A stretch of DNA of 64,000 nucleotides from the NCBI GenBank assembly GCA_003344405.1, contig NOWV01000136.1, positions 124,001-188,000 on the forward strand. Direction: 5' to 3'. Positions 1-57,423 of this stretch are shown here, piece after piece. The number at the start of each line of letters is the position of its first letter. The first letter of the stretch is position 1. Source of the DNA: Trichoplax sp. H2. Its lineage: Eukaryota. A program made the position numbers and the translations under genes. The notes under the pieces are model-generated. The model did no database searches, was not told the DNA's origin, and was given only the letters and a program-made list of their open reading frames with translations.

Positions 1-1029
1 AAGGTTACTTCGACTAACAAATCATGGCACTTCGATAGAGTAGCTACAGTATGCTGTAAATACCGTACCATTAAGTAATCCAGCACAAATCGAGTCCTAT
101 AGGTGGTTCAATATTGTCACTACATAACAAAATATACCCATTTCTGCCACATAAATAGGATTGCACTATTTTATTTAACCTTAATTCCATTTAAAAATCA
201 TGGCACTTCAATGAATCTCTACGAAAACAGCTAAAGCAATAGTAGTTTTCAAAATATCTTTGCTGATCAATAGACGGTCTGGAAGAAATCTAGAATAATG
301 GCATGTTTTTCTCAGAAACATATGTAACATATTTAATCATCTTGAATAGGCATCTTCGTACTCTCTCGGAAAGAAATTCCGGTAGAATTAGCATATACCT
401 TTATTGTGATCAGTCCTTAATGATCTTGAAGAGGCTAAGACATTTTTGTTACTGAAATCTTGCACAATTACTGAATATTTATGTCATTTTTATTTGTATA
501 TGCTACAGACAGGTATTGTCTATGTGTATTATAGTAGCACGAACAAAAAATACCTACCTCTACGGATTTTCAGATGTTTTTAATTAATGTTTAATCATTA
601 GACCACCTCTATAATCAGTCTTAGTACAGGTGCCATGCCAATCGCAAAAAAACATTATTCATACATTTACCGCAAGGTAACTGCACATTAAAGCCAAGCT
701 TCTGGTTGTAAGAAACTGTACTGTAAGTATCTAAAATAATATCAAATTTTCACTTCCACCGTCTACCCTATACCATGAACTATTAGAAATACTATAGTTT
801 CTAGTAGCCCATATTCAAACCTTTGCCTATACAAAACTGGATACCGCAATTGTTCATGATTGATAATGATACTGTCTCAAACACCGTATATTAATCGTTC
901 ATAACTGAAATCGAAAGCAAAATAATCATTTCAGATCCTATATCGACTATGATAAAGTTAGGTACTAGACAACGTGTAGGCAATGGCCATTATATAATCA
1001 ACTAGACTATTTCTATAGTATAATATTGT

Positions 1030-1270
1030 AATTACAAGACATGCTACCGGCAATAGTTTCATAGTACCCTGTAAAATCATATAAGGCCATAGTCCATCTA
1101 CGCGTATATTAATAATAAATACTGTATATCCCATATAAAAGAATACTATTTATTAATGGATATGTACTTTGGATATTTGATATGCTACCGGTTATGGTAT
1201 CACAGTACTCGATACTGTAAAATTGTATAAAGTCGTAGTCTATTCACATTAATCTACCGCATATTAGGGG
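1030..1270. repeat. Degenerate ~140-bp tandem duplication
   Basis: ATGCTACCGG...CTGTAAAAT...TAGTC...TATTA at 1041 and 1182. Confidence 0.6.
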
Positions 1271-2459
1271 ATGTCATTTATTTTTTAGTGTGTTCATATA
1301 TATATACTTTAGATATATTGATGCGTTATAATGGCTATCTTTCCACGTGGAATTACATTTTATGGTATTACGCTTCTATCCAACGTGGTATAGAGTATAT
1401 TTATAGGTGACAAAATGTAATCTACGACACTTATTTCCGCTAGCCGTGTTAGATAAATCAATGACTAACAATTAATAAGCAAATTTACGAACTATAATTT
1501 AATTTAATGTCAATCATTGTCAATTGACATTGAAGCTATCAATAGTATTTTATTATTTGCTTTAAGATCAAGAAAATACGTACGGTATTTTAAATTAAGA
1601 GCATTATAAAGCAATATCATACTCAGTTGTATAAACCAAACGTTGCTGTTCGTGAATGATTTATTAATTTTCGACCAATCTAATCGTGAAAATAAATGGC
1701 GTGATGTCAAATTGCCTGTACTTTATTTGACAGAGGTTATACCGTACTATGGAGAAGTAAGATTAAGAACATAATTTCGAAAGAAAGATACACTTTCTAA
1801 AATGATATGAAATACTATGAATAGTAGTTAGTAAAATGATTCACAGTAATATTAGCCAGTATCCTAGTTTCAACAGTTACTGGCATAAAACAGTTTTAAA
1901 AATTTTACCATGCCCTACAAGATTTTACTTTAATAATGAATGCATAATAACGATCATTCATTATAAAGTATAGCCTCATAGATTAATAAAGGATACGAAG
2001 TATATTAAATAGGAAATTTTAGGAATAGAGTAAAACATCAAGCAATATATCGGTAGAATCTATCAGCAGAGGATAAATCACTATGTAAAAATGGATATTT
2101 AAGAGTATGATCGCCATTTTTATATTTTCGATATCTGCAGTTATTTGAAGTAATCGGTCAACTCAATTAATTATTTTTCCGATTTCTTGGACCGTAGCAG
2201 AATACAATAAGGAATAACAGCATAATTAGGAAAAGAGTATTTAAGAGTAAATGCAAAATTACAGATACCCAATAATATAGATATAATGATTAACCACGGC
2301 TAGCAAGGTAACTGAAATAACACAACTTGAAAAAAAATTGATTTTACACTTTCAATCAATATTCTGATTTAGATATATTAAATTCAATTAAATAAGATCT
2401 TTATTTACTTTCTCTATATGGCACAAATAGAATAGTCCTACAGTCCAAGATTGACATAC

Positions 2460-3467
2460 TTAAACTGTAGTACTCCAGAGGGACCAAGTACGTGCTGCGA
2501 CTGGAGCGGTAGAATGAAAGGAAGTTTCTTGCCAACTATTGTGATTATGATTAAGGAATTTACTTTTAAAAATACAAATAACTTCAACCATTTCTATACG
2601 TAAGCTCTGAGTATTGAATAAGTAGACCAGTGGATTAACGGTGGCATAAATAAAGATTAGCAAAATTGAAATACCGTAAACATAGTAAAATACATCTTCA
2701 TTAAGCCAACCATTAATAAAACTTGAAATGATATAAGGCGACCAACAAAAGGAAAAGATACCAATAATCATTAAAATATGAGTTATAGCTCTTGTTTTCC
2801 TTTTCGCTCGCAATATTAACGGTCTATTAGAAACTAGCGCTGAAATGGATCGTTTACGTGACCAAATTACGATTAGTATACGAACATAAAAAATAATAGT
2901 TACACCCAATGGCATGAAAAAGAGGAGTGCAGAAAATGATTTTAACAGCAATTGACTACCAGTATCGAGCTGAAAATTGACATCACAGGCTGTCATATTT
3001 CCTGGTGGCACAACTGACATAGTAACGATAGCTGGTGCAGCCAGTGAAGCAATCCAAATTAATAAAATAGACAGAGATTTTTTAACTGGGGTTAAAGGTG
3101 AGTGTAATGGATAAATAACATGACAGTAACGATCGTAACTAATTAAACTTATATGATAATTAATATTAATCGACATAGATTGAGCTAATAATGGTAATAT
3201 AATGCAGAAGGGGAAAAATGTTTGGATTTGAGGGAAACCAAATGTTGGTATAACATAGAGTCCACCGAAGAGAGCACCGGCGAAAAATTTACTACACAAG
3301 ATTAGATTGGATGAATTATGTAGCCTTTTACGTGCACAAATTAGCATCATAACCGCTACATTAGTCATAACAGCGAGACAGCCAATGGACACTGCAGTAA
3401 TTTCATATGCAACTGAGTCAATAAAGTTGTCAGGATCGCTCATTGGATTATCATTTGAAGAGGACAT
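2460..3467 (-). CDS. Intronless rhodopsin-like (class A) GPCR, 335 aa
   Basis: Seven hydrophobic segments; TM1 N (VMTNVAV), DRY (SYDRYCHVIYP), TM4 W, TM5 P (FFMPL), TM6 FSFCWSPY, TM7 NPLVY; AATAAA on the minus strand at 2400-2405. Confidence 0.93.
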   Translation of the reverse strand: MSSSNDNPMSDPDNFIDSVAYEITAVSIGCLAVMTNVAVMMLICARKRLHNSSNLILCSKFFAGALFGGLYVIPTFGFPQIQTFFPFCIILPLLAQSMSININYHISLISYDRYCHVIYPLHSPLTPVKKSLSILLIWIASLAAPAIVTMSVVPPGNMTACDVNFQLDTGSQLLLKSFSALLFFMPLGVTIIFYVRILIVIWSRKRSISALVSNRPLILRAKRKTRAITHILMIIGIFSFCWSPYIISSFINGWLNEDVFYYVYGISILLIFIYATVNPLVYLFNTQSLRIEMVEVICIFKSKFLNHNHNSWQETSFHSTAPVAARTWSLWSTTV

Positions 3468-6400
3468 TTTTTTCTTGAGTTAGCTAGCGTCTAGCGATAT
3501 AAAGGCCTTTCCTGTTTGATTTACAATTCTTCTTGAAGACTGATATTTCAAGTTTTATCAATAATGACTTAAATAGTCGTATTAATATTTTGCTTTTGTT
3601 TCAAGTTGTGGCGATAGTAATATTAAGAAAACAACTCTTTATGCTACAGAATGATGCTATTCACAGTGATGACATCCATTACTTTCCGCAATACTTTGAA
3701 TATTCTCATGCCAATTGGGGCTATCAATGACCTATTTGTTTGAAGAGAGATATTGCAAATCTAAATATCAAAATACAAAAGTATGAATGAGAATACTGTA
3801 TCTCTTTAAACTTGGAATTAGGTTATGTAGTATTCAATTAATTTCAATATCGTCAAAATTGTGAATGGATTCATATTTGGCAATTCTACAAATCCTAGAT
3901 TACTAAGTTAAGGTACTGATATGAAATAGCAATTTTTTATTATTTTCTAGTTAGAATGAAATGGATACACTAGCTAGCGTAATTTTTCTTAACTCACCTA
4001 GGATAACAATAAATTTACACTAGAGTAACGTGTTTAAATGATCTAATTATTGTAATGGATACTTAACTTAAAGGCATGAGAACAAGTAAAGAACCATGTC
4101 AGAAAATAACAGTAATTCCTTTTCTAATGTGGTATTGACTATATTTAGCATACCACTAATAGTTACAAAATTGGTAATACGAATAATTCAGTTGGATTAA
4201 TCATTACTCGTAGATATACCGTGAGATTTCTTTCTTAATTACGATACTCCACAAAATTCTATCATTACAAAAAATATTGGCGATATAACTGCATAAAAAA
4301 TAAATACATAGAATGCATTATTTTGTAGCATTCAGTACCAGAAAGTGTCTGAAAATTTTTTTTCTGCATCTTAATACTTCTATTAGGTTGTGAATCTACT
4401 TAGCCGTAAATCGTCAAATGGTTAGGATAAACTAAGCGAAAATAATATTCAAGAATAAGAATAGTACCTTAGAAGCGAGTTGTGAAGAAGCCAAATAGTG
4501 GAAGGTTTATAAACTTTTCTAATCCAAAGTTGTAACAGTTATATTATAGCTACCGCAAGTACTGAAAAGAAACAATCAAAACTGATATAGAAACGTTATT
4601 CAAAATTTTCCTTTTAAGACAAAATAAGGGACTATGTTCGATCTAACGATTAGTTGATAATTACCTCGGTATTACAGTCTTTGATGCAATAGGTTACGGT
4701 CCAATTCTATTAGTTAGTTATTGGTAATCTGAGCAATGGGAAGATCAGAAAGAGAAAGTTATTAAACGTCTAAATCGATTACTTTTATCTACAACTCTAT
4801 GACAGTAATGAGTTTTACAACAGGCACAAGTATATATCCAATCAGATGACAATAATTAGTGAAAAAAAAATTAGTGATACCCAATGCTTTAAGTAATTTA
4901 GGGTGAAATTAGATCGAATTAAATGTAACTAGATTGCCAATGCTTACGCTCTATCATCATTAGTTTTAAATTATTTAAATCCTATCTGCCAATTAATAAA
5001 ATTGAAATTAGTTCTAGATATTGTATGTCAATATATCTTCTTAATTAATCCAATTGAAAGAGGTTACTATGAGTTAATGATCGCTTTATGTCATGTTGGA
5101 CTCAATTTTTACTGCAGAAAAACAATTATGAAACATGTAGTTCAATAATATTAAAAATTTTGAGAAGAACCTGTAATGTCCTGCAAATCTATGGAGTGAA
5201 GAGAATACGTAACAGATATAAAATAAATGCTAAAACGATAGATGCCAGCAAATTGAAATAGATGTAGAATAATAAAACAACCTTTCTAAATCAATCTTGC
5301 GACCTCAATCAATATATTTAATGGCTATTCTAGTAAATATTTTAAATTATCAACTAATGGTGTCAAAAAGAAAAATGAAAAAAATTTTTTTTAATTATTA
5401 ACTTATTTGATATCTAGAACAAATCAGACTGGGTCACCTTAATTTCTATGCCCTGAGGCTACTACTGGCAAAATAGCTACCTTACTTACATGTAATATAC
5501 GAGTAGATTGCTGTAGATTAATAAAATGCTACTATTTTGATTATAGTAATATCAGCGTAGTTGATCCATTACCGATTAAGATTATTAAAAATTTGATGGA
5601 ACTAAATTGAAGCAATTTCATTTTTTTATAGGTTATTTTATTAATTAACAGTTCATTTTAATACGCAATAAGTCTTTACCGATCATACTAACCATGGACC
5701 ATCAAGCATTAAATCAGTGTGTGTATTTTTGTAACAGAAAGAGATCAAAAATAAATTGCTACTGCTGCGTCGCCAGCTTTCGACATCAATCAATAAATAA
5801 TGAATTAAGTCAGATTTACCTCTCATACTTGTATATTCTCAATCAATAATTCGATCAATGATTTAATGATATAGAATGAAAATCATTGGATACTAAATGC
5901 GATGTTGACTCGGCTCAATCAGTAAATATTTTTTAGTCAATAGCTATGGATCAATTGAAATAAAGGGCCAACTTGCGTGAAGACAAATAATATCGATGAA
6001 TTGCTTGGAAATTGAGATATTGACGTAAAGGATGCGAGCATGAACATTCAATCGGTTAAATCAATGAAATAGCACCAAACCACTATGTAATACTTTTTTA
6101 CCCACTCCTCTTCCTCTATTCTTTTTTCCGCTATTTTAAATTATCTATGATCTCTTAATCAATGGAAAGAATGAAATTTTTATTGCCTATTAACTCCTTT
6201 ATTCATAGTTTTATTGAACTTTGGTATTGCCAGTTTATCGATCAGAGATGCTACTTGTATCGTTACAGAGCGTAAACGTATCGAAAGTAATTGACTTATA
6301 AACCGACATTGATGGCAAAGGCATAAATAAAGAAGGAGGAGCTAGCGTTTATTATAGTCTAGCAAAGTATTCAAATTTTAAAAAATGAAAGTCTCGCCCT

Positions 6401-29157: not shown

Positions 29158-29433
29158 GTGAGTTTTTAATGTAGCTAAAAATGGTTATACTTTATGCAGA
29201 AATTTTAGTAAAATTTTATCATGCAAACGAGATATAAAATAAATGTTTATTTCTAAACTCATGCGGTTAGTAACTAACTGTGTGACTGATTAAACTTCTT
29301 TCCTATCCTATCGCCCTCGTCATTAAACTCCTAGATTTACCATTTAGCTTCTCATCATTTGTAGTCGAAATATGCTATATAGTGCGTAAGGTGGCTATTA
29401 AAATAAATATTAATTTCAACTTGATATTTTCAG
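29158..29433 (+). other. Probable 5'-UTR intron of the GPCR at 29481
   Basis: Consensus donor AAG|GTGAGT at 29158 and acceptor TTTTCAG ending at 29433, 47 nt before the ATG. Confidence 0.55.
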
Positions 29434-29480
29434 TTCCAGTTTCTTCATTATTAGCCTTGGAACTACAACTGCAACAAGAC

Positions 29481-30527
29481 ATGGAAAATACAACGATAGA
29501 TATAGATGAGGATATCAATCAAACCACAGTCGATTATTTTATAACGCAATTTCCAAATTCTACGTTCTGTCCATCCTTGCAAGCCATTTTAAATATTCTT
29601 CATGTAATCATTAGTGGTTTAACTATTTTTATCAATTTGAGCATATTTTTAATCATCATCTGTCGCAAAAGACTGCGTAAATGGAATAATTTTTACCTAT
29701 GCGGTATGTTTTTAGCAGCTACTGGAACAGCTACTGCCAACATTATCCATAAGGTACTATTTAAAATGGATCTAATTTTAGTTTTTCAACAAGGATTTAT
29801 TGCTGTCTTTAACTATTTGATTGCTGTCGTAACATTTAATCGATTTTTGCGCGTTTGTGAGCCTATACGTTATAAAAGTATCATGACTAAAACAGTTATT
29901 GCCAGCGCTACATTATCTTGTTATCTATTTTGCTTTATCATTCCAATTGTTGATTTTATTTTAAGACATTTCTTACAAAACCCAATGGATGCTCTATTAG
30001 TTCGGATGTTAAATTGGCTCTTGGTATGCCATATTTACATTCTACCATGTGCTTGCACTATTTTCCTCTATATTCGTATCGTTATGATTGTATTCTCTCG
30101 TGCCCAGTTTTTAAATCAAATTTCGCTATATCATGCCACGCGATGCAAAACTAATATGAAATCATTTCAGCAATTAGCATTAATTGTGACTCTGTACATT
30201 TTATGTTGGTTGCCCTATTGCATATGCTATCTGGTATTGTCACGCTCTCCCAGTCAAATTGCCGAGACAACATCGATTATTAATATTCTCGTCTTGCTAA
30301 TATTTTTCCATCAAGCCATTAATCCGATCTTGTATGTTGCTCTAACAACAACGATTAAAGATGAAGTGATTGACATTGCCTATAATCCACATGGTAGATA
30401 TCCACGGTCTCGAAGTAATCGTAAAACATTCACATCGAGTGGTAAAGGCGAAACAGTTAGCACAACTACTAATTGTGAAGCCCATCCACATCGTATTCAT
30501 GATATCCGTGAGGTAACTCATTTCTAA
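29481..30527 (+). CDS. Intronless-CDS rhodopsin-like GPCR, ~348 aa
   Basis: The ORF track starts at a GTG (29382); the first ATG is at 29481 (MENTTIDIDEDINQT, N-glycosylation sequons). NRF replaces DRY; TM6 CWLPY, TM7 NPILY. Confidence 0.9.
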   Translation: MENTTIDIDEDINQTTVDYFITQFPNSTFCPSLQAILNILHVIISGLTIFINLSIFLIIICRKRLRKWNNFYLCGMFLAATGTATANIIHKVLFKMDLILVFQQGFIAVFNYLIAVVTFNRFLRVCEPIRYKSIMTKTVIASATLSCYLFCFIIPIVDFILRHFLQNPMDALLVRMLNWLLVCHIYILPCACTIFLYIRIVMIVFSRAQFLNQISLYHATRCKTNMKSFQQLALIVTLYILCWLPYCICYLVLSRSPSQIAETTSIINILVLLIFFHQAINPILYVALTTTIKDEVIDIAYNPHGRYPRSRSNRKTFTSSGKGETVSTTTNCEAHPHRIHDIREVTHF

Positions 30528-37346: not shown

Positions 37347-38309
37347 CTATTTGATACTTTGAACTTTGGTCGGTTTAACACGACTTATGATACGAACACG
37401 ACGAATACTTCTTCTCCAAATTCGGCCACCTTCCCTTCTCAAACTTAATGTATAAAAGTAGTAAATGATTGGATTAATAGTAATATGAGCATACAAAAGC
37501 ACTTTCAAAGTATTTAATATATCCACAGATACGAAAGATGGATTTCCAAGTTGGACCATGTAGGATATGGTATAAGGTAGCCAACAGAAGGAAAAAATAC
37601 CAATAATAATCGCCATTTGCTGGATTGCTTTTTTATTCCTTTTTAAATTGGCTTGTTTAACATGAGGCATAATGGTGATCACTAATTTGGCTCTCGAATA
37701 GACTAAACACATAATGGCAATATATAAAATGATGATACAGAGTAATGGAAGAAAGATGATAATGACCAAGAGGAAAGTAGCTAGCACTGCTGTATTAGCC
37801 GAGCGATGGATAAAACAAATTTGATCGGATAAAATGTTGGCATAGATACTACCAACCACAGTAAAAGCTAATATCCATAGCAAGATAATGGCTACAGTTA
37901 ATTTTTTGGTGGTGATGAGGTATGGATATCGTATAGGATAAGCTACTCGTAAATACTTGTCAGCACTAATCAAGATCATGTGTAAATTATAGTTGAGCAT
38001 GAGTGATTGAGAAAGAACGATAAAGATGGCGCAAGATGGATAACGATAGGTGGTATGACTGAAGAACCAGCCATAACATGTGATTAAGTATACACCAAAG
38101 GCAGCACCAACAATTAATAGACTGGATAAAGCAGTATTGGAAGAGATATGGCGTAGTTTTCGATCACAAGCAATAAATACCAAGATGATTACATTGGTTA
38201 AAATAGACAATCCACCTAAAGTAACGTTAATTAAGCTAAAAGTCAATGAATTCCACCGTGGAGCATGGCTATACTCGATAGTACTGAATGTAGTTTGATT
38301 CACAAGCAT
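37347..38309 (-). CDS. Intronless rhodopsin-like GPCR, 320 aa from the first ATG (frame open to a GTG at 38411)
   Basis: 7 TM; TM1 N (ILTNVII), DKY replaces DRY (ADKYLRVAYP), TM6 FSFCWLPY, TM7 NPIIY. Start codon uncertain. Confidence 0.9.
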   Translation of the reverse strand: MLVNQTTFSTIEYSHAPRWNSLTFSLINVTLGGLSILTNVIILVFIACDRKLRHISSNTALSSLLIVGAAFGVYLITCYGWFFSHTTYRYPSCAIFIVLSQSLMLNYNLHMILISADKYLRVAYPIRYPYLITTKKLTVAIILLWILAFTVVGSIYANILSDQICFIHRSANTAVLATFLLVIIIFLPLLCIIILYIAIMCLVYSRAKLVITIMPHVKQANLKRNKKAIQQMAIIIGIFSFCWLPYTISYMVQLGNPSFVSVDILNTLKVLLYAHITINPIIYYFYTLSLRREGGRIWRRSIRRVRIISRVKPTKVQSIK

Positions 38310-38499
38310 GATGTTGATGGCGCTACTTGATTGCCAAGACTTGACCAAACTGGGAAAGAAAATGGATTCTGTAGCGTTTATATTACTCAATATAGTATTA
38401 CTTGCATCCACGATCGATATTAGTATTCTTTCTCAACGGCCAGAGTCGAATAAATGAATTATTTACCAAACCAATTAATTAGCAAAGAAATCGCTGTAT

Positions 38500-45618: not shown

Positions 45619-47488
45619 TTTAAGATCGTATCCATTGAGATTGATTGAGGAATATATTTGAATTATGAGGCATTAATACTGTACGTATAAACTAAATCAA
45701 AAGTATTTATAATTGGTATTAATTAAAAGATCTTTAAAACTATGATGCTAAAAGTGAATTATGCACCCATATTTTGCTACAAATTAAATTATGATATACG
45801 TATCAACTTCTTAAACATATCGAAAATAAATATAGATCATAGACTTCTATATCACGCGTATAACAGTGACAATTTATCTACTCATTCTAGACCAAAAGTT
45901 TTTAGCACTGATGGACGTCATCATTTTGTATATTAAGTTACTTTTTGATCATTCTTGTCTTGAAATACTCAATAAAAATTTTTTTCTGTAATTTCTACCC
46001 TTTTTAATTAAAAACATTCGGATATTACAATCATAGATTTCTAGATCATACACGCGTACTAGATAGCTCAAAGTGGCGGTATAACAGCCCAGATTATATT
46101 CTTTTGCAGGCAGATTTAGTTATTTCTATACATTTAGTTANNNNNNNNNNNNNNNNNNNNTATTATCAGCTACAAGCGCATTAAAACATAGCACATAACC
46201 TTATCTTATCTATTCATAAGCATTCATTAATTTACAGTTACTTAATTAGTAACGGCGTACCGTGACAATAGCATACAGTGAGTAGACATAAATGAATTTG
46301 TAACTATTGTAGAAATAGCCTTCCCTAAACTAAACGTAGTGAGATTCAAGGATTTGAACAACTGTTGATATAGTTTTCTAAATATAAAGTATCCTGTATT
46401 GAAGTAATATAATGTAGATATCTGGCAGTTAAAGTAATTTACAGCTGTCTGTACATGTACATTTCATACTGAGTTTAACTTGAAATATGTTCTTGGAGTG
46501 ATATACGNNNNNNNNNNNNNNNNNNNNTTTAAGATCGTATCCATTGAGATTGATTGAGGAATATATTTGAATTATGAGGCATTAATACTGTACGTATAAA
46601 CTAAATCAAAAGTATTTATAATTGGTATTGATTAAAAGATCTTTAAAACTATGATGCTAAAAGTGAATTACGCACCCATATTTTGCTACAAATTAAATTA
46701 TGATATACGTATCAACTTCTTAAACATATCGAAAATAAATATAGATCTAAATAAGTGTATTTAAGGGTATTTGATAGATTTTAAAAAGTTAGTCGCTAAT
46801 ACTATCCCGCTACAGTTCATGTCAATTAAAATATTTGCCAGGTAAAGACAGCTATAAAACGTACACTTGATAAAAAGTTCCCAATTTGCGTTACTGCAGT
46901 AATTTCTGGAAACTTGTTAATAACAAGTTTACTATTCGTAGCGGTAATTAACCACTAAGTTTCTTTACTACCCAAAGTGCCAATTTTATGGCCTAGATTA
47001 TTTTTAAACTCTTCAGATTAAATTATAAACGCCAGCGTAATAGCCCTGACTGTAGTTCTAGGCTAAGAGAGGTAATTATTTCTGCTTATTAAGTTACTGC
47101 CTTTAAATTCTGTATTGAAAATGCTATAAGAGTCACTCCTGCCCTTTCTATTATCTTTCGATGGAAAATAGTCAGATATAACAATCATAGACTTCTATAT
47201 CACGCGTATAACAGTGACAATTTATCTACTCATTCTAGACCAAAAGTTTTTAGCACTGATGGACGTCATCATTTTGTATATTAAGTTACTTTTTGATCAT
47301 TCTTGTCTTGAAATACTCAATAAAAATTTTTTCTGTAATTTCTACCCTTTTTAATTAAAAACATTCGGATATTACAATCATAGATTTCTAGATCATAGAC
47401 GCGTACTAGATAGCTCAAAGTGGCGGTATAACAGCCCAGATTATATTCTTTTGCAGGCAGATTTAGTTATTTCTATACATTTAGTTAA
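45619..47488. repeat. Near-identical duplicate across gaps (alternative haplotypes), with a 439-bp indel
   Basis: 45619-46140 matches 46528-47488 except for 46748-47186; ATC microhomology at the junction. Confidence 0.85.
46161..46507 (+). repeat. Displaced mini-contig that belongs at ~23.4 kb
   Basis: 46161-46260 equals 23334-23433, and 46268-46507 matches 23740-23979; bounded by 20-N gaps. Confidence 0.85.
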
Positions 47489-49843
47489 TTCCTGGCAATT
47501 CTGCATTAAAGGCGATCCACACAAGAGCCTTTATTACAATTTTAATCCTCTGTCGATTAAAAATAGTCATAGATGACAGATCAAAGTGCTAGCATTACGA
47601 AGGAACCACACCCGTCTCCTGGATACCAAATCGGTAGTTGATATCTCTATCCTATATACTTGTATATATCTAGATATAGATTAATAGTGTACAAAGCCCT
47701 CAAGTAATGTTTGATCATTGCAATATTGATCAATATGTTGTCTTTCCGATGTGATCGTGAAGTTAATCGTCGGTTAAACTGGACACTTGACTACCTAGGC
47801 TAACAGACTGTAAAGTGAATAATCTACACGCAAATTGACTACGAACTAGCGAGCCTTAGCGCTAAAATTTCTTAGGTATTATTTCTCCTACTACTACTAC
47901 TACGATCTAGGTGGTTGACAAGCAAGTTTGGAACAGCTTAAGTGTTTACCTATCTTTATCATATTGGAATAGCATATCAAGCTTGCAGTAGAATCAATCA
48001 AGTACGGTATGGAATGACTAGAATTTTACAGTTAGTTTATTTCCTTCAAGATATGAAATATTATGAATGAAATCAATTACCATGTTCGCTATCACTTATA
48101 AAGAACTGTTAAAGCATTAGTCTATATTTGAATTTACGGTAAACTTGATCATACTGGCAAAGGAAAATAACACTGTAGCATGATTTTGTTAACCGATTCT
48201 AAATCTATTGGAAGAATTTATGGATCCTTAGGACGTTGAAACTGCTCAAAGATTGCTAAGTAGTAGATAGGATAGTATATTAAAGATTTTGAAACAAATA
48301 CAGTTTAGAAAAGAGCACAGAGTCTTACCTTATTATATTTTTCATATTGAATATTAGCCTTAATCGATTATCTAAGAAGCTATCTCTAACATCGTCACGA
48401 TGTAACGTCTCGATTTTTGGATCCGGTCCTTTTTTAACGCCAAGAATAGGAAAAGACTTGCATTATTACTTTACCACTCATCACGTATACAGTACACCGT
48501 ATAGTCTATATTTCATAACCTATCTGGTATAAACTATGATTACTTATAGTCTTCATAACTGTTCTCTGAGCACATTCATTAAATCTATCTACGATAAACT
48601 CCATATTAACAGCCATTCATGCACATCTACAGTATGCTAAAGATTCTAGAGCAGCTTGAACGACTAGACGATAATGTTGCTAACAAATGTAATTAGGAAA
48701 ATTCATTCGAGATTATTTACACATTTTGACAGATAGTGAAACACCTTTATGAATAAGTATCTATTTATTATAAAGTTGTAGTATATTTAACATAGCAGAT
48801 GGAAACCTTACAGAATTTTACTTAGGTTATGTATTCAATACAATTCTGATTCTTAAATTCAATTTGCTGAATATCAAATCCGATGCATCAAAGAATGTTT
48901 ATTTTATTCACGTCTCAAAGGAATGACATTTAATAGTCTGTGTGTTTATTGAGAGAGTGATGTATAACTATCAATTAAACATCGATTTATTATAAAGTTC
49001 TTTGCATATCGCTTAGCAGATCGAAACTATGAAATTTTACTTAATTTATCTTCATAGGTAAATAGATTTTAGATTCTATAGTGAGACGTCGGTAGTCCTA
49101 AGTAAGATGGCGGCGCTAGACCTAAGCCATGGACTAGTAATGGCAAGGATCACTTTTAGGCATTAAGGTAGTCGTGTACTATTAGTAGCTGATTCTAGAG
49201 ACGATAGCTGTGTACATAAGTAAGATTGCAGGGCGCCTTGGTAAGCGGCATTAGCAGATCTCGCCTATCATTGGCTTAGAATGAGGGATAGCAATCATAC
49301 CTAGCTAGGGATCTTGTACCTGCAGGAGCTATACTAAGTATTGAGTGGTATAAGGGAAACGATAGACTAGGTTAAGCTAGGTTTTAATTTGAACTGGCTA
49401 GGCAGAGCAACTGGGCAAAGACATTCGTCAGCATAATTTCAGGAAGGATATAAAGGCTGATATCTTAAAGAGAAGTTTAATCGATAGCCTTTGAACTAGC
49501 TGTGTAATTACCTAGTCTAAAGTTTTAATACTGTAATATTCAACAATATTTTTAAGTAATAACTAATTTTAAGCGCTACATTATGAGACTGATTGCTGAC
49601 TGGTTAGAGCAGAGCTAAAGGTAGTACATTATTACAATGTATTGAATGCAATTCTGATTCTTAAATTCTATTTATCGAATGCCAAATCAAAGTCATCAGG
49701 GATATTATTTAAATAATATCAAAAAGGAGGAAGGACATGTGATAGTCTGCGTTTTACTTATTACTAAATCGGTTGTCAAATGATAGCACTTTGAAACGGT
49801 ATTATACCTATATTTTAAGCTAGATTGGCTAGTTCAAGATCTA

Positions 49844-50731
49844 ATGGGTGGTGATTTGAGAATAGTAAGCCAATTTACAAGCGAAAATTGCGTATTTAAA
49901 TTTGCAGTAGGAGATCTTACAACATTATCGAAGAAAGATGCTGTGGATATCCTGGTTGTGTCAGCGTTTCCAGGTATGAGTAGAGTAATGGATCTTTATA
50001 AATAAACCCTTTCGATGACACGTTTACGTATCTATTATCAAATTATCAGATTTACTTTATGGCTCTTGCCATAAAATAGAATATAAAATAATTTCAATTG
50101 CCTTAAAAAAGAATTTAATGTAAACTTAACATGAATTTTGTTAGGTGATTATGCGACTATTCCTGGCACACTCATTGGAGCTTTACATTCTAGATTGAAA
50201 GTTAGCCTGAGAGAATTGGCAAAAGATAGAGTGGATTATCGTTTATTCTATAACTGTTGGTATTCTCGCCTTCTTCCCAGTCATCTCAACTTTCGAAGGA
50301 TATTATGTTTCGAGAATGTTACAAAATCGCATCCATCTCAGGCTCTTGGCGATATTTTCCGCTGTATTCTCCCGCTATTTAACGACAATCAAGGTTCAGT
50401 AGCAGTGCCTATATTAGCAAGTGGTAACCAGGTAATGAGCTTTCATGAAATGAAGCCTATTTGAAGATAAGAAACGATAAATTACATCTTTTACTTTATA
50501 ATACATATTGATGAGCTTATAATCATAGTTTTATGGATTTTAATCATATTATTTTAAAACAATTAGGGCTATAGTCATAAACAAATGCTTTCAGCTACCA
50601 TAGAATCTGCAATAACATGGCTACAATCAGGCTTGTCGATGAAATCATTAATCATATGCAGTTATCTAGAGAGTAAAGAGTTACTAGCCGTTTTTAATTC
50701 GTATAAAGCACAACTAACATTACCAATGAAG
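49844..50731 (+). other. Macrodomain-like repeat 1 (exons 1-3)
   Basis: FAVGDLTT...VDILVVSAFPGDYATIPGTLIGAL...SVAVPILASGNQGYS; the motif order parallels macrodomain GDIT / D-IVNAAN / GGGV-GAI / SIAFPAISTG-YG. Confidence 0.65.
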
Positions 50732-53700
50732 GTTAGTAATTGAATTATATAGCTATAAAGTCATATTTGTACATCTGGCATGGTTTATGACTAGTGAGAT
50801 TGGATTTATTTTTTATTCTAAAGTATCCAGCGGGTTCCGGTCCTAAAGTTTCACCAACCAAACAGCCAACCAAAAAACCGGTTACCAAAGTAACGCCTAT
50901 AAAGTACGAAAAGTATCTAATAAAATTAAAAGTGCAATAGGACATAGTCCTGACTGGAAGCTAAATCCAACATCAAGCTCTGATAGTCTTATGTTACATT
51001 ATTTTTATATAATCAAAGAACAAATACAATAAAACTTAATGCTGCGACAAGTATCTAGTAAAATAAAAGTATATTTAGATATAATCCTGATTGGAAGCTA
51101 AATCCTTCATTAAGCTATGATAGTCCTAATTTAAATTTTTTTATATAATTAGAGCATAAATAGAATAAAAATAGATCCAACTCGTTTTATAAACCATTAT
51201 ATCATCCGCTTACATCTGCTGCTTTAATAATTGATTACTGATAGGAATGTTCCTGCAACAAATTCGTTACGAATAGTCGATTCATTCGGTGTTGAAGGAA
51301 CTGCTTGTCCATCGATAATTAAATATGCAACAGGAGATTTAACAGATTTGCAAAAAAGCGATGAAATTGATGTTTTAGTAGTCTCTGCATTTTCAAGTAA
51401 GCGTTTCTTAATATTCTTACAATCGTATCTATTGAACCTTTAAAACTGTGATTCAGGCGTATTATATATGCACCAGTCTAGAAGTTTCTTTTTCCGCTTC
51501 AATAATTACCTTCCTTAATATTTATGGTGTGATATTTTCTTATTGCAGATGACTATGCAGCTATTCCTGGGACGTTGATCGGAGCATTAAAAAAAAATTT
51601 GGGTATTAGTGTTGAGGAGCTAGCAAAAAACAAAGCTGAAGATTACCGAAAATATTATTCTTGCTGGTGGTCTCAGTTGCTTCCTAGTCACATCAATTTT
51701 AAGCGTATAGTCTGTTTTGAAAAGAAAATAAGCGTTAAGCCCACCCAAGTTATTGGTAATATTTTCCGATGTTTCTTTCCACTTTTTAACAACGAGCCTT
51801 GTTCAGTAGCTATGCCAGTACTAGCAACCGGCAATCAGGTAAACTATGCATGAGTCGATTATTTACTGTATTGTTTGCTCCCGCTATATCTAACGAAGTA
51901 GCTCATATCGAGCGGCACCTAGAGGTAAATTTAGAAATTCATGTCCAACATAATGCAATATAACTACTATAACATATACCAATCCAGAGTTATCGATCAA
52001 GACGATTGTTTAATTGTGCGCTATGAGTAAAAATGTAGAAAAATTATGCAGAAAAATAATACAAACTGAAGCGTACCGTGTATGTTACTTTCTTGTACTA
52101 GATAAATCTTGTAAATCTTGTAGGCACAGTCTTACCAGAGTATTTGACCTTTAGCTATCTACTATTAGTCAGAAATGGTCAAAATTCAGTAATTTCTTCC
52201 AGACAGTATAAAACTAACTACAACATTTTTAGATTTTAAACTAATTCGACTGCTTATAATATGGCCTTGCTATGATAGTTGACTATTTAGAGTTATTATT
52301 TGGATATTATAGGGATATTCCCAGACTCGAGTATTTGAGTCTCTATTAAATGCTGCTATCCGGTGGATAAGAGCGGGCTTACCACTCAAGTCGCTGTTAG
52401 TTTGCAATTTTACGAAAAACCCTGAATTGGATTTGTTATTCACTAAAATCAAGGCTACTGCTTTGCTTCCTCAACCAATAGCTAAAGTAAGTTACCTATT
52501 TATAAATAAGTATCAAGTTATAGGAAGGGTTTGAAAAATTTTCAATAGAACTTTAGTTGTGGTATCAAATTACGACATGTCTCACAAAATATTTCATTAT
52601 CAGCGAAATATAAACACAAATTGATGGATGGCCAAAACTTTTGCCCTTCAGGTTCCAGAATTCGATTTCGATTTTTATATATCCTATAGTCCCCAAGATA
52701 TTACACTTGCAAACAGAGTGAAGAATGAGCTTGAAAATGCATGGGCAGAAGAAAAGAAAGCAATTCGTCTTCATACTAACTTTCAAGAAATTAATCCTGA
52801 CATTTCATGGCAAGATGAAATTTATAATGCCATTTGCAAATCAATCCGTGTTATTGTGATATTAACACCTAGCTATTTGCAGGTATATTCCTTAACCAAT
52901 ATAAAAATTAGCATAGTCTAGTTCTATGATGCATTTGGAAATTATTTCTTCTATTTGACTTTTCTAAAACAGCTTAAATGTTTGCTTGATTTGATAATTT
53001 ATATAGTGCGAAGCATGTAAGGAACAATTTAACGTTGCACTTTGTGTCAACCAACAATCTAAATGGAATTTGTTAGCCCCACTCTATGTTATTGCTATTC
53101 CTGATATTCCAACATATATTACATTAGTACAATATATAGACTGTCGGTGAGTATTATTTGAACGTAACTAACAATAACTTTATACCTATAAAATTATTAG
53201 ATATCTCGTAGGATTGTATAGGACTATTAGAAATGAGTAGCCTTCTCAATGATTCGCATTTTGCATAGGGATAATACCGAGGTCTGTATCAGTAAAGCAA
53301 GTGAACAGTTTTGTGAATGGCATCAGCGGTCTAGCGATGAATTAGAACTAATTGATAATCCTCACGAAAAAGCTACAATCAAGTATAATTATGATTTATT
53401 CATTTCCTACTGTCACGAAAATTCAAACTATGCTAAGTTAGTACTTGAAAAGATGAAAATTTTCGATGAAGATGCTAACATTTTCTTTGATGTTCAGCAA
53501 TTAAAGGTAGATTGCTGTAGTATTTTGAACCAGATCAAACTTGATTATAGCTATTTATCAGTGAATAAGAACATATAAATGTTTATGTGTCATAAAACTT
53601 GTAAATAGATAGGCCGTTTTAGTTTATCATCTAGATGGATATATTCTAGTAATGAATCATTACCAAAACTCTTTAGAAGTTAATCTCCGCGTATCTTTCT

Positions 53701-55401
53701 ATCATTCATTTGGCTAATTTTTATTTATAGACAGGAACCGCATGGCAGAAAGAGCTATATGAAGCTATTGATGGTAGTCAAAGTTTAGTTGCTATTGTTA
53801 CACCTGCATATGTACGATCAAAAGTGTGTTATGAAGAGTTTTCACTAGCATTAGCATTGGATCGTGAAAGAAATACATCAGAAGGGAAACGATTTTACTT
53901 TTGTCCTGTTATCTTAAACAGTAATGATAACGTTCCTAGTACATTTAGACATGCCAATATGATGATTTGTAAAGATGGTAGTTTCTCAAATGAATTTGTT
54001 AGTAAGGTTTGCCAACATTTAAAAATAGGCCAACATTTACAGGTGTGTTTAATTATTAAGGAAAATATTACATAAAATTTTTACAATATAAAGCTATCTA
54101 ATAATTGGATTAAGTCATTAGAAAAATGCTAAAACAACTTGATACTTTTGCAAGGATTTTCCGATGGACAAGGATGAGAAATCACCAAAGCTGGATGAAG
54201 TTCTAAGTAAATGGAGAGCGTTCCAGTTTACTCAAATAGCACAGGAAATAATGGCTGATCTTGATAAATTACCAAAAAGCGCAGTTACTGGCACTGGTGC
54301 TACTACTAAAAGATCGTCTATCAAAGCCATCCTTTGTTCAAAAAACATTTCAACGAGGGCAATCATAAATACTTTCAATGCTAGTACCACTGCTAGTACA
54401 ATAAAAGTTGATGATTCGCAAAAGTCTGTACATGTTGTAATCTTAAATGCTCAAAGCGAAGAAGATACAGCTGCTATGTTGAGAAGTTTGCTGACGAGAT
54501 TACTTCCTCAAACGAGAGTTACTCTATTGCAACAGCCAAAAACAGAAGAACAAACTCATAGAAGATTAAATATACTAGATGAAGTTGATATGGCTATAGC
54601 ACTAATATCACCACAATATTTATTGTCTCCTAAATTAGTAGACGAATTGCATATCATGCTTTTTCGACAAAGGAGTAATCCTCAGCGGTGTCTCTTTTTC
54701 CCAATAATTATGTATGGACTGCCGGAAGAACCGTTATATTTTAGGATATTAAACTGTAGATACGCATGCCACGATGAATTTTGGGATAAACTATACGAAA
54801 AGAGTCAGTTAAAAGTCCTAATTGAGAGTATATTTGGCCGTCTTGATATACGAAAGCAAATGGTATTGGTTTGTGCCGCTATTCATATAATCCGACTTTT
54901 AAATGGAAAAGGTATTTTTGCGTTAAAAGCATATCGCATCACTTAGAAAGCTGCTTCAAAATGATAGAACGAGCTACATACGAATGCAATCGCAAATATA
55001 ATTACGATAGTCTAGCAGAATATTTGTAAGTTTGTAGTTCTCACTTTTATACGGATAGTATCTTAATTTCATTGCATTGTCGTGATAATTGGAATCAGAT
55101 CTATTTTATTATACTATAGCTTAAGAACATTATAAATATCTTGAATTGATAAGACTATACGTCTAGGATTCGCATTTATTGATATTAGGAACTACTATAC
55201 GAGTATATAAGTAATACTAATTTATCGAATTACTCTTTTATGGCTTTGCTACTACATAGATATCATAAATGAACGATACTGTATTGCTAAATTTACATTT
55301 TCGTTACAGATCAAGGAAATTTCGGTATTTTATTAAATCTCAATAAAATCAACGACGAAATTGAGGATATTGAAGTAATTGATAAATTGAAGAAGCTGTA
55401 A
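49844..55401 (+). CDS. 13-exon gene, ~1018 aa: macrodomain-like x2 + TIR x3
   Basis: Hand-spliced exons: 49844-49973, 50145-50431, 50567-50731, 50824-50912 (alternative donor ends exon at 50903), 51245-51396, 51549-51838, 52313-52486, 52652-52882, 53007-53146, 53269-53506, 53731-54042, 54155-54911, 55310-55401. All introns are GT-AG with compatible phases, giving one open frame (3057 nt) to TAA. Confidence 0.85.
50911..51170. repeat. ~138-bp intronic tandem duplication
   Basis: AAGTATCTA...TCCTGA.TGGAAGCTAAATCC..CAT.AAGCT.TGATAGTC occurs twice, starting at the exon-4 donor. Confidence 0.75.
51245..52486 (+). other. Macrodomain-like repeat 2 (exons 5-7)
   Basis: YATGDLTD...IDVLVVSAFSNDYAAIPGTLIGAL...SVAMPVLATGNQGYS; clearly homologous to repeat 1. 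Confidence 0.65.
52652..53330 (+). other. TIR domain 1 (TIR_2-like)
   Basis: FDFYISYSPQD...SWQDEIYNAICKSIRVIVILTPSYLQCEACKEQF...LAPLY...LVQYIDCR. Confidence 0.85.
53385..54042 (+). other. TIR domain 2 (TIR_2-like)
   Basis: YDLFISYCHEN...IFFDVQQLKTGTAWQKELYEAIDGSQSLVAIVTPAYVRSKVCYEEF...FCPVIL. Confidence 0.88.
54425..54911 (+). other. Divergent TIR/SEFIR-like domain 3
   Basis: VHVVILNAQSEEDTAAMLRSLL...LDEVDMAIALISPQYLLSPKLVDELHI...FFPII; box 1 is degenerate. Confidence 0.6.
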
Positions 55402-56277
55402 GGTCTCGATTGTAATGTGTACTTGTTACGCTTAGGTTATGTATTTGTTGCTAAAGCCATAAGTTAAGTTAGTGTTAATAATTAATCAAGGTTTAGATAG
55501 GGTTTCTTTATATTGCTTTTTACTTAATCTGAGATTTGTATTTGTACATAACTTCATGAAATAGAGAATATATAGCATCTGTGTAGGCTACAGTATGTAT
55601 CCTAGAAGATTGGAGAATTTAGGACAGTTTTGATCTTATTGCCTGTCGATAACATCTTCTTTAACTGAAAAGTTGATGAAATTGATGGCTCCATCAATTT
55701 TATCATTAGTATTTAGTAGCCTAACAGTACTTAAAACTAGGTTTGTAGTATCAATTTTTATTTTATATCAATAAATATACATATCTTACCATAAATTGAC
55801 TACGGTTCTTAAGGGTAATACAATGTTCAACATGTCACTTTTTCTATAGTTTTTCTGTAACATAGTTCCTAGGTGTAGATGATCTATCGTAATACTATAG
55901 CGCATACATTTAAAAAGTATCGTTGCTATAAAAATTGCTCGTAATATAATAGTATGCTTAATAGGATATCTTGGTCCAGTAGAAGATAAAAATGTTAACT
56001 TTATACATTAAACAAATAATTTAGTTGTACTAGACTTAAGTACGACTGATGATAATAAAATTATGATCACAATATGCTGATTTTGACATTAATAAATCCA
56101 TATCATACACTCAAAATGAAATGTGAAGTTCATTTGCTCTAGAACTTTCAACTAAGTTCAGTCTCATATTACTGCATTTCTTGCAACAGTAATTCTACCA
56201 TTTAATAAGCTATTTGCCACTTAAGTAAGACGGTAGTACTTGCTTGAAAGAGCCATATTAACTTTAAAACTGTAAAT

Positions 56278-57423
56278 TCAAGCTTCAGTTAAGTCATCAT
56301 TAAAATAGATATGAATCGCTGGTAAAAAAGAGTCATCGTTCATGCCAAGTTTGAAAAATTCTTCAGAATCATCAGCAACTTCGTTCTCTTCTAGGGTTTT
56401 TGTCATGTCTAAATTTTTTCCAATGTATTTCCAAGTATAACTGCGTGCATGGGAATTGTATTTCATATAACGATCTTGAATCTCATCTAAGATTTCTTCA
56501 GAGCAAACCTGCAACAAGCAATATTCTTAATTACGATAAATTTTATAATGTATCATTCTGTAAAGTACTTATGCTGCTATTACGAAATATATAAAATCGA
56601 TAGGAGATTAAGCTGAAGTTTAGTATTACTTCGATTGTTTGCTCTTGAGATGTTAAAGTATTTATAACGCGAATAAATCGAGTTTTCTGTGAAAGAAGGC
56701 CTATGCAATAGGCATCATCTTTCCACCAAGGCTTTCCAAAATTATTAGCCCAATCACTTTGTGGATATGGCGGTGGAATATGAATAAAACGGCCATGAGG
56801 TGTATATGGTACAATGCAACCGGTAACAGGATCGACATGCGTTCTTACCTAAATCAAGAGTGAAATTAATTTTACACTTAATGCATTTACGTGTCTTTTA
56901 ATACGATTCAATTTTAAGATAAAAGCAAATACTGTAATATTGAACAACTACTCACATCTTTCGTTTTATCATCGAACCAATGAGAAATGTCTTTACCAGC
57001 TGATTGTATAACTGGTTTCAAGAGTAGATCTCCTATAATGGATAAATGGCGTGGTTATTCGAGCTTACTAACATCACCGAATTTCAACTAATAGCCGTTG
57101 ATTACCATATATCATATACTTGTTATAAATAAAATGATTATATTAATACGAATCTCAATCATTCACTCATACTACATCAACGCAATAATCTACTCTTCAA
57201 TATTATATGTTGTTGCCATACTTCTTTGCAGACTCCATCGGCAAATACTGTAAAACCTTGACAAGTACATCAGTAAGCTAGAGCTAAACGATGCCTAACC
57301 TGAATATTGATTACATAGCGGTGTTAAATTGTAAACCTTGCCCAGGAATGAAATCCATAAATCATCGATTGTAGTGTGTATACTAACTTCGTTAGGAGTG
57401 AAATATTTCGGCCTTACCACCAT
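56278..57423 (-). CDS. CYB5D1: Cytochrome b5 domain-containing protein 1 (ciliary/axonemal), 216 aa, 4 exons
   Basis: Exons 57423-57300, 57032-56956, 56848-56630, 56508-56278. Translation KYFTPNEV...[14 protein letters not shown]...[10 protein letters not shown]...HVDPVTG...[12 protein letters not shown]...[12 protein letters not shown]...YFNDDLTEA matches the CYB5D1 family as I recall it. Confidence 0.95.

Follow-up and report, generated by a model that had tools for sequence, protein, structure and literature searches.

The placozoan Trichoplax sp. H2 encodes an expressed single-chain protein in which two macro-like domains precede three TIR domains, and which we regard as a candidate ancient NAD-based immune switch. 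The gene was found in a stretch of 64,000 nucleotides (contig NOWV01000136.1, positions 124,001 to 188,000; hereafter the window, in whose coordinates positions are given), where its coding sequence occupies 49844..55401 on the forward strand. The product is cytosolic, with its parts in the order Macro-like, Macro-like, TIR1, TIR2, disordered linker, and TIR3. It belongs to a conserved old invertebrate family, typically with one Macro-like domain and three TIRs, that is homologous to a bacterial protein encoded by a single gene.

The window is AT-rich (about 30% GC). Stop-to-stop open reading frames (ORFs) on the forward strand between 49.8 and 55.4 kb were joined via introns into a gene model of 13 exons with an open 3048-nt frame encoding 1015 amino acids (aa); the single frame proposed by a first-pass annotation of this DNA was upheld, while its length of about 1018 aa had to be corrected. 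The coding exons (all +) lie at 49844-49973, 50145-50431, 50567-50731, 50824-50903, 51245-51396, 51549-51838, 52313-52486, 52652-52882, 53007-53146, 53269-53506, 53731-54042, 54155-54911, and 55310-55401, and the borders are GT..AG in all 12 introns. The last exon encodes aa 986-1015 and the stop codon. A search with exon 2 retrieved TRIADDRAFT_57729 (P0001) of Trichoplax adhaerens, a 1015-aa protein that is 100% identical across this exon and differs from our gene model, which has the same length, at 6 of 1015 residues. The gene model is already public in NCBI as "uncharacterized protein TRIADDRAFT_57729," with no function attached. A second copy of the gene was not found inside the window.

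Assembled contigs from four public sequencing runs were aligned to positions 49500-55700; they speak for the joined form and the linkage of the macro and TIR parts and not for the level of expression. All 12 joints were recovered within single contigs of 4959 nt from run X5 and 4173 nt from run X6 (the RNA type of both is guessed), including the joint to the last exon, placed at 54909>55308. Run X7, which is RNA on record, gave 11 of the 12 joints in a single 3665-nt contig that stops at 54720. These three runs represent separate studies. Run X1, with no library type on record, contained none of the joints, and its several contigs cross the introns as genomic DNA would. The single contigs spanning the exons in X5, X6, and X7 place the macro and TIR halves on one mRNA, so that the proposal of one spliced gene with one transcript held, and the gene is real and expressed.

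The X5 and X6 contigs also extend the gene upstream. Their ends come loose from the genome at 49823, and the last 30 letters of a 5' exon map uniquely to 47976-48005; this exon joins 48006 to 49824, with a GT donor at 48007. We place this non-coding exon (5' untranslated region, UTR) at 47710..48006 (+), where the 3' end is exact and the 5' end is approximate, being taken from the 297 nt of contig before the joint. Since an in-frame stop at 47970-47972 is followed by no ATG before 49844, the ATG at 49844 is the start codon. By contrast, the X7 contig continues without splicing into exon 1, starting at 49500 or further upstream (49500-49971); the first intron may be retained here, or the gene may have an alternative 5' end.

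The N-terminal part consists of two homologous repeats, as the first-pass annotation had recognized, with 50.8% identity across 193 aa (E 3e-74). Macro-like domain 1 (49868..50698 (+); aa 9-183, exons 1-3) and Macro-like domain 2 (51270..52420 (+); aa 230-404, exons 5-7) match a family hidden Markov model (HMM) with E 1.6e-57 and 3e-59, respectively, and exon 4 encodes a Pro/Lys/Thr-rich linker between them (within aa 195-229). Intron positions and phases match between both repeats, indicating a tandem duplication of a three-exon block at the DNA level.

The repeat matched no model in Pfam, PADLOC, or NCBIfam, and its assignment to the macrodomains is based on fold. Repeat 1 (aa 1-194) was folded by AlphaFold2 (AF2) with an alignment of 122 relatives, giving a predicted local distance difference test score (pLDDT) of 90.9 and a predicted template modeling score (pTM) of 0.89. 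Foldseek found 228 matches to this model in the PDB at E<=1e-3, headed by macroH2A, PARP14/15/9, Af1521, and YmdB, with MacroD also among the structural matches. With VIA, an aligner independent of Foldseek, the ten best chains were mostly macrodomains or fusions that carry one, with Z scores of 16.7-15.4 and a root-mean-square deviation of about 3 A over 168-182 residues, and Z>=8 was reached by 40 of 48,161 chains. These models predict that the N-terminal repeats adopt the three-layer alpha/beta/alpha macro fold, as the first-pass annotation had supposed. Its further suggestion of a macrodomain near ThsA of the Thoeris defense system was not borne out, as EcThsA (8v6q) ranked 20th with Z 12.4, compared to 15.4-16.7 for macroH2A, PARP9/14, and Af1521.

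At the level of sequence, the signal for macro homology is weak and barely visible. A profile of the N-terminal domain retrieved only two PDB sequences at E<=10, PARP14 (0.13) and MACROD1 (0.77), both macrodomains aligned on phosphate loop 2. An hhalign comparison with a canonical cyanobacterial macrodomain gave E 0.056 over 32 columns and, in a permissive local mode, E 0.011 with a probability of 3.9%. In the ESM Atlas the best scores were 0.87 (threshold for a lead, 0.9), with a Macro cluster among the top three, which we treat as a lead only. A scan of the Coleofasciculus genome G001 with the Pfam Macro model PF01661 found three canonical macrodomains and missed its Macro-like-TIR gene.

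The sequence conservation of the domain fits a conserved pocket and not a decayed domain. Across 123 bacterial and Trichoplax sequences the invariant positions include G23, L25, S40, Y46, D74, W82, C98, F99, and E100, with D24 conserved in at least 90%, and both Trichoplax units and 17 other sequences of the eukaryote clade likewise preserve the signature residues. The GD(I/L)T motif is retained with its adenine-contacting Asp (aa 24, codon 49913-49915 (+), and aa 252, codon 51336-51338 (+); GDLT in both units), as is phosphate loop 2 (xAxPxxxxG; A130-M131-P132..G137, at least 90% conserved). These two motifs align with GDIT and AFPAISTG of a canonical macrodomain in low-probability alignments, whose register rests on fold topology; the sequence alignments and the order of strands and helices in the model agree on this register. 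In place of the Gly-rich loop 1 and the NAAN Asn, the family has another loop, V-S-A-F-P-x-x-Y-x-P-x-P-x-(S/T)-L-I-G-A-L, in which S-A-F-P-x-x-Y-x-P is strictly conserved. The macro-PARPs (PARP9, PARP14, and PARP15) and macroH2A are the nearest solved folds, but they share only 12-18% identity with the Trichoplax domain, whose loop 1 is not Gly-rich, and their macrodomains are partnered by a PARP or histone domain instead of TIR.

Downstream, Pfam TIR_2 matched three stretches of TRIADDRAFT_57729 (E 2.1e-33), confirming the count of three TIR domains in the first-pass annotation. The family TIR HMM recognized TIR1 (52655..53305 (+); aa 428-562) with E 7e-32, TIR2 (53381..53982 (+); aa 588-713) with E 3e-33, and a divergent TIR3 (54419..54910 (+); aa 822-949 in the HMM match, folded to aa 985) with E 3.3e-8. 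The TIR3 region (aa 822-985) folds in AF2 with pLDDT >90, and its best Foldseek matches in the PDB are the TIRs of L6, TRAM, RPS4, and Hydra TRR-2, with E from 6e-5. A linker predicted to be disordered (54155..54418 (+); aa 734-821; AF2 pLDDT <50 for fragment residues 1-88) separates TIR3 from the other two. Save one chance-level match, Pfam detected nothing but TIR in the protein at E<=1, and the accessory domains of TLR, IL-1R, MyD88, and SARM1 are absent, as had been noted from the sequence. No transmembrane (TM) segment is evident, as the highest Kyte-Doolittle mean over 19 residues is 1.53, short of 1.6. Matches in PADLOC and NCBIfam were confined to the TIR region, and the NCBIfam scores were far under the curated cut-offs.

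The three TIRs differ at the position of the catalytic glutamate, which is essential for all NAD-processing TIRs according to the available text of Hurieva et al. (2026). We identified this column, the third residue after a conserved Cys, via a profile alignment to "CKYE" of TLR2. In TIR1 none of 20 aligned rows has Glu (16 Q, 2 H, 1 K, 1 M; Gln510 in Trichoplax, codon 53025-53027). By contrast, Glu is present in 19 of 20 TIR2 rows, one fragment not being alignable (Glu665, codon 53836-53838), and in 18 of 19 TIR3 rows, with Ala in Mucochytrium and no TIR3 found in Nematostella (Glu897, codon 54644-54646). As TIR1 lacks the glutamate throughout, no more than two of the TIRs can be enzymes. TIR1 and TIR2 share a W-Q motif behind the BB loop, and the G..WQ motif (BB loop/start of helix B) is lost in TIR3. 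The motifs of TIR2 are the nearest to the bacterial consensus, in which each Glu of C-x-E-E is at least 90% conserved.

This architecture is old and widespread among invertebrates. We searched with aa 1-430, scoring the 8000 candidates that shared the most words, and found at least 30 proteins at E<=1e-3, including those of Nematostella, Montipora, Rhopilema, seven gastropods, three bivalve proteins (two Mytilus species and Pinctada), Lingula, and Lineus. Orthologues are thus known from Placozoa, Cnidaria, Mollusca, Brachiopoda, and Nemertea. There was no vertebrate orthologue among the 30 matches from these best-word candidates, and the sampled sequences of vertebrates and ecdysozoans yielded no family member. 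The ecTIR-DC group that Gerdol and colleagues are said to have described in 2017 reportedly comprises TIR families that are conserved across invertebrate phyla and absent from vertebrates. Local HMMs show the animal relatives to have one Macro-like domain followed by TIR1, TIR2, and a divergent TIR3; the last was detected in 13 of 15 named animal proteins and missed at threshold in Nematostella and Elysia. Among the relatives mapped, two macro units occur in Trichoplax only. The 15 named proteins are called uncharacterized or hypothetical or bear an automatic label, except for one evident mis-annotation as collagen. This agrees with the first-pass annotation, which recognized no named animal gene with this architecture, but the architecture is not unique to Trichoplax, being that of an invertebrate family with bacterial relatives.

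In the tree of the macro-like domain (109 rows, midpoint root only), the eukaryotic rows form one clade with support of 99, which also holds an 822-aa protein provisionally labeled bacterial (P0251); the branching inside this clade broadly follows animal phylogeny, and both Trichoplax units are sisters (support 98). The tree suggests that the eukaryotic clade is nested within bacteria. In the TIR tree (72 rows, after seven short TIR3 rows and one TIR2 fragment with <70 residues were dropped), TIR1 (20 rows), TIR2 (19), and TIR3 (12) each form one clade, with support of 97, 99, and 99. The TIRs were hence triplicated before placozoans, cnidarians, and lophotrochozoans parted, and the pattern of glutamates has been kept since before the sampled lineages separated. 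A horizontal transfer into Trichoplax alone was ruled out, since the orthologues in other phyla follow the species tree.

Two further sequences fall among these eukaryotic relatives. A metagenome contig of 5.3 kb (L004; 40% GC) carries an uninterrupted 1012-aa ORF (108-3146 (+)) with a Macro-like domain and three TIRs, and the following 2 kb or so contains no ORF as long as 70 aa. The macro domains of this protein and of the jellyfish Rhopilema are sisters (support 96), and the copy looks intronless or transcript-derived and of cnidarian type. In addition, the MMETSP transcriptome of Mucochytrium quahogii, a labyrinthulomycete parasite of clams, contains a 787-aa Macro-like and TIR protein (P0151) in the eukaryote clade, on a very long branch and with His, Glu, and Ala at the catalytic position of TIR1, TIR2, and TIR3. 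This protein may stem from host transfer, contamination, or old inheritance.

The bacterial relatives are Macro-like-TIR proteins of about 340 aa. A search of genome contigs with a single protein gave 2 loci, and a metagenome search was used instead. With the N-terminal domain of a metagenomic homologue as the query, 765 proteins were found at E<=1e-3 among 3453 candidates; 115 of the 120 relatives listed have a Pfam TIR match, and five have the N-terminal domain only. A profile of this domain alone matched 1175 of 1.84 billion representatives at E<=1e-3 (838 at <=1e-10 and 319 at <=1e-30). The named bacterial members come from Cyanobacteria, Acidobacteriota, Planctomycetota, and Chloroflexota and are annotated merely as TIR proteins, except that JGI automatically labels one of them (P0042) as "O-acetyl-ADP-ribose deacetylase." Proteins such as P0005 of Coleofasciculus chthonoplastes ("TIR domain-containing protein") are homologous to the Trichoplax protein over both domains, sharing its domain order and signature motifs, and are 35-42% identical to it in the macro-like part. 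They differ in having one macro and one TIR domain, no introns, and no conserved partner gene, whereas the animal form has three specialized TIRs and that of Trichoplax two macro units.

No conserved neighbor gene was found in 82 bacterial loci, where the largest neighbor cluster comprised 4 loci, including three near-identical contigs, suggesting that the bacterial protein acts alone. Pfam TIR matches 38 of the 42 long relatives, and the additional domains are HSP70 (4), protein kinase (4), the type VI secretion system (T6SS) sheath VipA/VipB (3-4), NUDIX (3), CHAT (2), FHA (2), patatin, PLD, a tubulin-like domain, and NB-ARC. In those fused relatives that were mapped, TIR is immediately preceded by the Macro-like domain. 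Judging from these arrangements, the Macro-like-TIR dyad behaves as expected of a portable sensor-effector module. Some of the fusions are unusual chimeras: in certain bacteria the dyad sits at the C-terminus of a complete T6SS sheath VipA-VipB (P0157, P0185, P0196, and relatives), and in others it is joined to HSP70, tubulin-like, or MreB-like proteins. Elsewhere in the Coleofasciculus genome (L084:844-2594 (-)), a 347-aa protein that matches Pfam Macro at its N-terminus adjoins a 219-aa ORF, a pair that we presume to resemble the DarT/DarG toxin-antitoxin system.

We tentatively favor, as a possibility that comes close to being probable, a nucleotide-gated TIR NADase or signal generator under macro control. 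The macro-fold domains would be the regulatory, nucleotide-binding part. Because these domains retain GD(I/L)T and phosphate loop 2, their ligand is probably ADP-ribose (ADPR)-containing or related, and because the Gly-rich loop is replaced by another strictly conserved loop, it need not be plain ADPR. The TIR array would be the output, with TIR2 (Glu665) and perhaps TIR3 (Glu897) cleaving NAD+, thereby depleting it or yielding an ADPR-derived signal, and TIR1 (Gln510) may contribute to active-site assembly as a partner with no catalysis of its own. Ligand on the macro domain(s) would then switch the assembly or activity of the TIRs on or off, comparable to SARM1, TIR-STING, and TIR-SAVED. The accessible sections of Hurieva et al. 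(2026) report that diverse animal TIRs, including non-TLR proteins with the glutamate, make cyclic ADPR (cADPR) in vitro. A complex prediction for macro unit 2 (aa 226-424) and TIR1 (aa 427-566) scored 0.24, with a mark of 0.34, and thus counts neither for nor against contact between the two.

A more specific version, which we consider unlikely, is that TIR1, TIR2, and TIR3 form a head-to-tail chain, in this order, that pre-assembles composite active sites and is gated by the macro-like domain(s). The losses are complementary: TIR1, which keeps W-Q and lacks the Glu, might serve as a BB-loop donor only, TIR2 retains both Glu and W-Q, and TIR3, which keeps the Glu and lacks the BB-loop motif, might be an acceptor only. 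The non-canonical macro pocket would gate this array upon binding a nucleotide signal.

The closest functional parallels are other TIR systems with a nucleotide signal. In type II Thoeris, the ThsB TIR makes His-ADPR, which is sensed by the Macro-TM effector ThsA, as described in the accessible parts of the Sci Adv 2024 paper on the Thoeris macro domain and the 2025 preprint on TIR systems. This system likewise combines TIR with a macro fold, and the mechanism proposed here is modeled on its use of a macro domain to read a nucleotide signal. However, it consists of two genes with a membrane effector, whereas the Trichoplax protein is one soluble chain with no TM segment evident. The only Thoeris model matched in NCBIfam was the type III ThcB4 (27.1 bits, with a cut-off of 220), and PADLOC ThsB matches were weak and limited to the TIR part. 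The Trichoplax protein is not a Thoeris member, and the bacterial relatives do not form a two-gene operon either. SARM1, TIR-STING, and TIR-SAVED also place a nucleotide-binding regulator in cis with a catalytic-Glu TIR (in our case the binding is predicted), and the TIRs of oyster TIR-STING (6wt6) and SARM1 are detectable sequence relatives (E 3.6e-6 and 8e-3). By contrast, the Trichoplax protein has no ARM, SAM, STING, or SAVED domain, its regulator having a macro fold, and its TIRs are a tandem array of three with divided features instead of a single oligomerizing TIR. By analogy, it would work most like these ligand-gated TIR effectors, while belonging to none of them.

Several observations weigh against a macro-gated enzyme. 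Neither the exon pieces nor proteins P0001-P0004 matched PF01661 at E<=1, and the N-domain of leucine aminopeptidase scores as high as Z 13.9 in VIA. The Gly-rich loop 1 (GGG) and the NAAN Asn, features for gripping or hydrolyzing ADPR, are absent; in canonical macrodomains they serve diphosphate and ribose contact and MacroD-type hydrolysis. Moreover, some macro folds have no ligand or have other roles. Among 93 neighbor ORFs from 13 long bacterial loci, PADLOC and Pfam revealed no consistent defense-island context, the ORFs being mostly metabolic or housekeeping with scattered single PADLOC matches, so that even in bacteria the immune role is one that we infer. The family TIR profile finds TLR2, TLR10, MyD88, and TLR6/1 at the top of the PDB (E 3e-13 to 1e-10), and its matches to proven NADases are weaker (AbTir 8e-8, SARM1 8e-3). 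In addition, TLR2 is inactive in spite of its catalytic-position Glu, as stated in the part of Hurieva et al. (2026) available to us, and a glutamate at this position is therefore no proof of activity.

The resemblance to TLR and MyD88 TIRs also raises a somewhat unlikely alternative, namely that the protein is an adaptor or scaffold whose TIRs are interaction modules in a TLR/MyD88-like pathway and whose macro domains recruit it to proteins ADP-ribosylated by PARPs or toxins. The best PDB sequence matches of TRIADDRAFT_57729 are six MyD88 TIRs, all on TIR1 (E 2.4e-4 to 5.8e-3), and MyD88 shares with TIR1 the Gln at the catalytic position; together with the TLR- and MyD88-dominated profile matches, this is consistent with an adaptor. 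Kamm et al. (2019), as far as their accessible text goes, propose that Trichoplax TIR-only and ecTIR-DC proteins may be alternative adaptors. However, TIR2 and TIR3 have kept the Glu across phyla (19/20 and 18/19), as has the bacterial family (at least 90%), and the accessory parts of MyD88, TLR, and IL-1R, such as the death domain, leucine-rich repeats, and TM segment, are absent, as is a CARD. We know of no TLR pathway in bacteria, which also argues against this role. Adaptor and enzyme functions are not mutually exclusive.

It is also conceivable, although quite unlikely, that the macro-like domain is itself an enzyme of a new subtype, which hydrolyzes or converts the TIR product or removes ADP-ribose from targets and so trims the protein's own signal. 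Charged or polar residues are invariant or near-invariant in loops around the predicted pocket (D74, R76, E100 in "CFEP," Q139, and Y46), and hydrolases are common among macrodomains, MacroD and YmdB being two of the structural matches here; the deacetylase label of P0042 points the same way, although it is merely automatic. The catalytic Asn of the MacroD type and the Gly-rich loop are absent, however, and the closest folds belong to the mostly non-catalytic class of macroH2A and PARP9/14 macro 2/3.

Finally, a wrong merger of separate macro and TIR genes, or of a bacterial contaminant, an idea raised by the fragmentary ORFs and by the bacterial identity of the nearest non-eukaryotic relatives, is vanishingly improbable, as nothing was found to support it and as single transcript contigs from three studies join the macro and TIR exons, 12 introns of the spliceosomal type interrupt the gene, its scaffold of about 6 Mb carries animal GPCR (G protein-coupled receptor) genes on either side, and its orthologues follow animal phylogeny.

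The neighborhood of the gene in the window includes other animal genes. Upstream, the rhodopsin-family GPCR model 7tm_1 matches the long ORFs 2463-3479 (-), 29286-30524 (+), and 37350-38432 (-), with E 3e-26, 4e-14, and 8e-23, respectively, which are apparently single-exon receptor genes. Just upstream of the 5' UTR exon there is a tandem repeat of about 1.3 kb (45727-47576 (+)), seen as near-verbatim pairs of ORF translations (45727-45936/46636-46764, 45836-45991/47172-47354, and 46008-46184/47355-47576), which surrounds two 20-N assembly gaps (46141-46160 and 46508-46527). About 0.9 kb downstream of the stop codon lies a spliced gene on the opposite strand (56281-57054 (-)), whose exon-sized ORFs, searched as pieces, had no Pfam match; its peptides recall what we take to be a cytochrome b5 domain-containing ciliary protein.

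In the literature we found no paper that names TRIADDRAFT_57729 or describes a macro-TIR family, animal or bacterial, although the supplements of Kamm et al. (2019) and Hurieva et al. (2026) may list it. Kamm et al. (2019), in the text available, arrive at 16 TIR proteins for Trichoplax sp. H2 and assign eight to "ecTIR-DC" families. The word "macro" appears nowhere in the main text of Hurieva et al. (2026), nor among the partner-domain abbreviations of its Figure 3 legend, and a fused Macro-TIR protein is not described in the accessible portions of the 2025 TIR-systems preprint, the Sci Adv 2024 Thoeris macro paper, or Kaur et al. (2021).

The family thus offers a compact case of an unrecognized macro-type domain, a putative sensor, in cis with a TIR array whose catalytic-position pattern was fixed before placozoans, cnidarians, and lophotrochozoans diverged. 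TIR enzymes and their small-molecule products are now regarded as an immune language common to bacteria, plants, and animals. Within animals, to our knowledge, catalysis has been linked to SARM1 and a handful of isolated TIR domains only. A domain family with at least 1175 cluster representatives has so far escaped Pfam, NCBIfam, and PADLOC. Its recognition opens the questions of which ligand is read by a non-canonical macro pocket, how tandem TIRs build active sites, and whether a one-gene bacterial module was a possible source of an animal immune pathway. If the TIRs do form a head-to-tail chain, placozoans, cnidarians, and lophotrochozoans would have retained an animal immune NADase or signal generator that is kin to this one-gene bacterial module.

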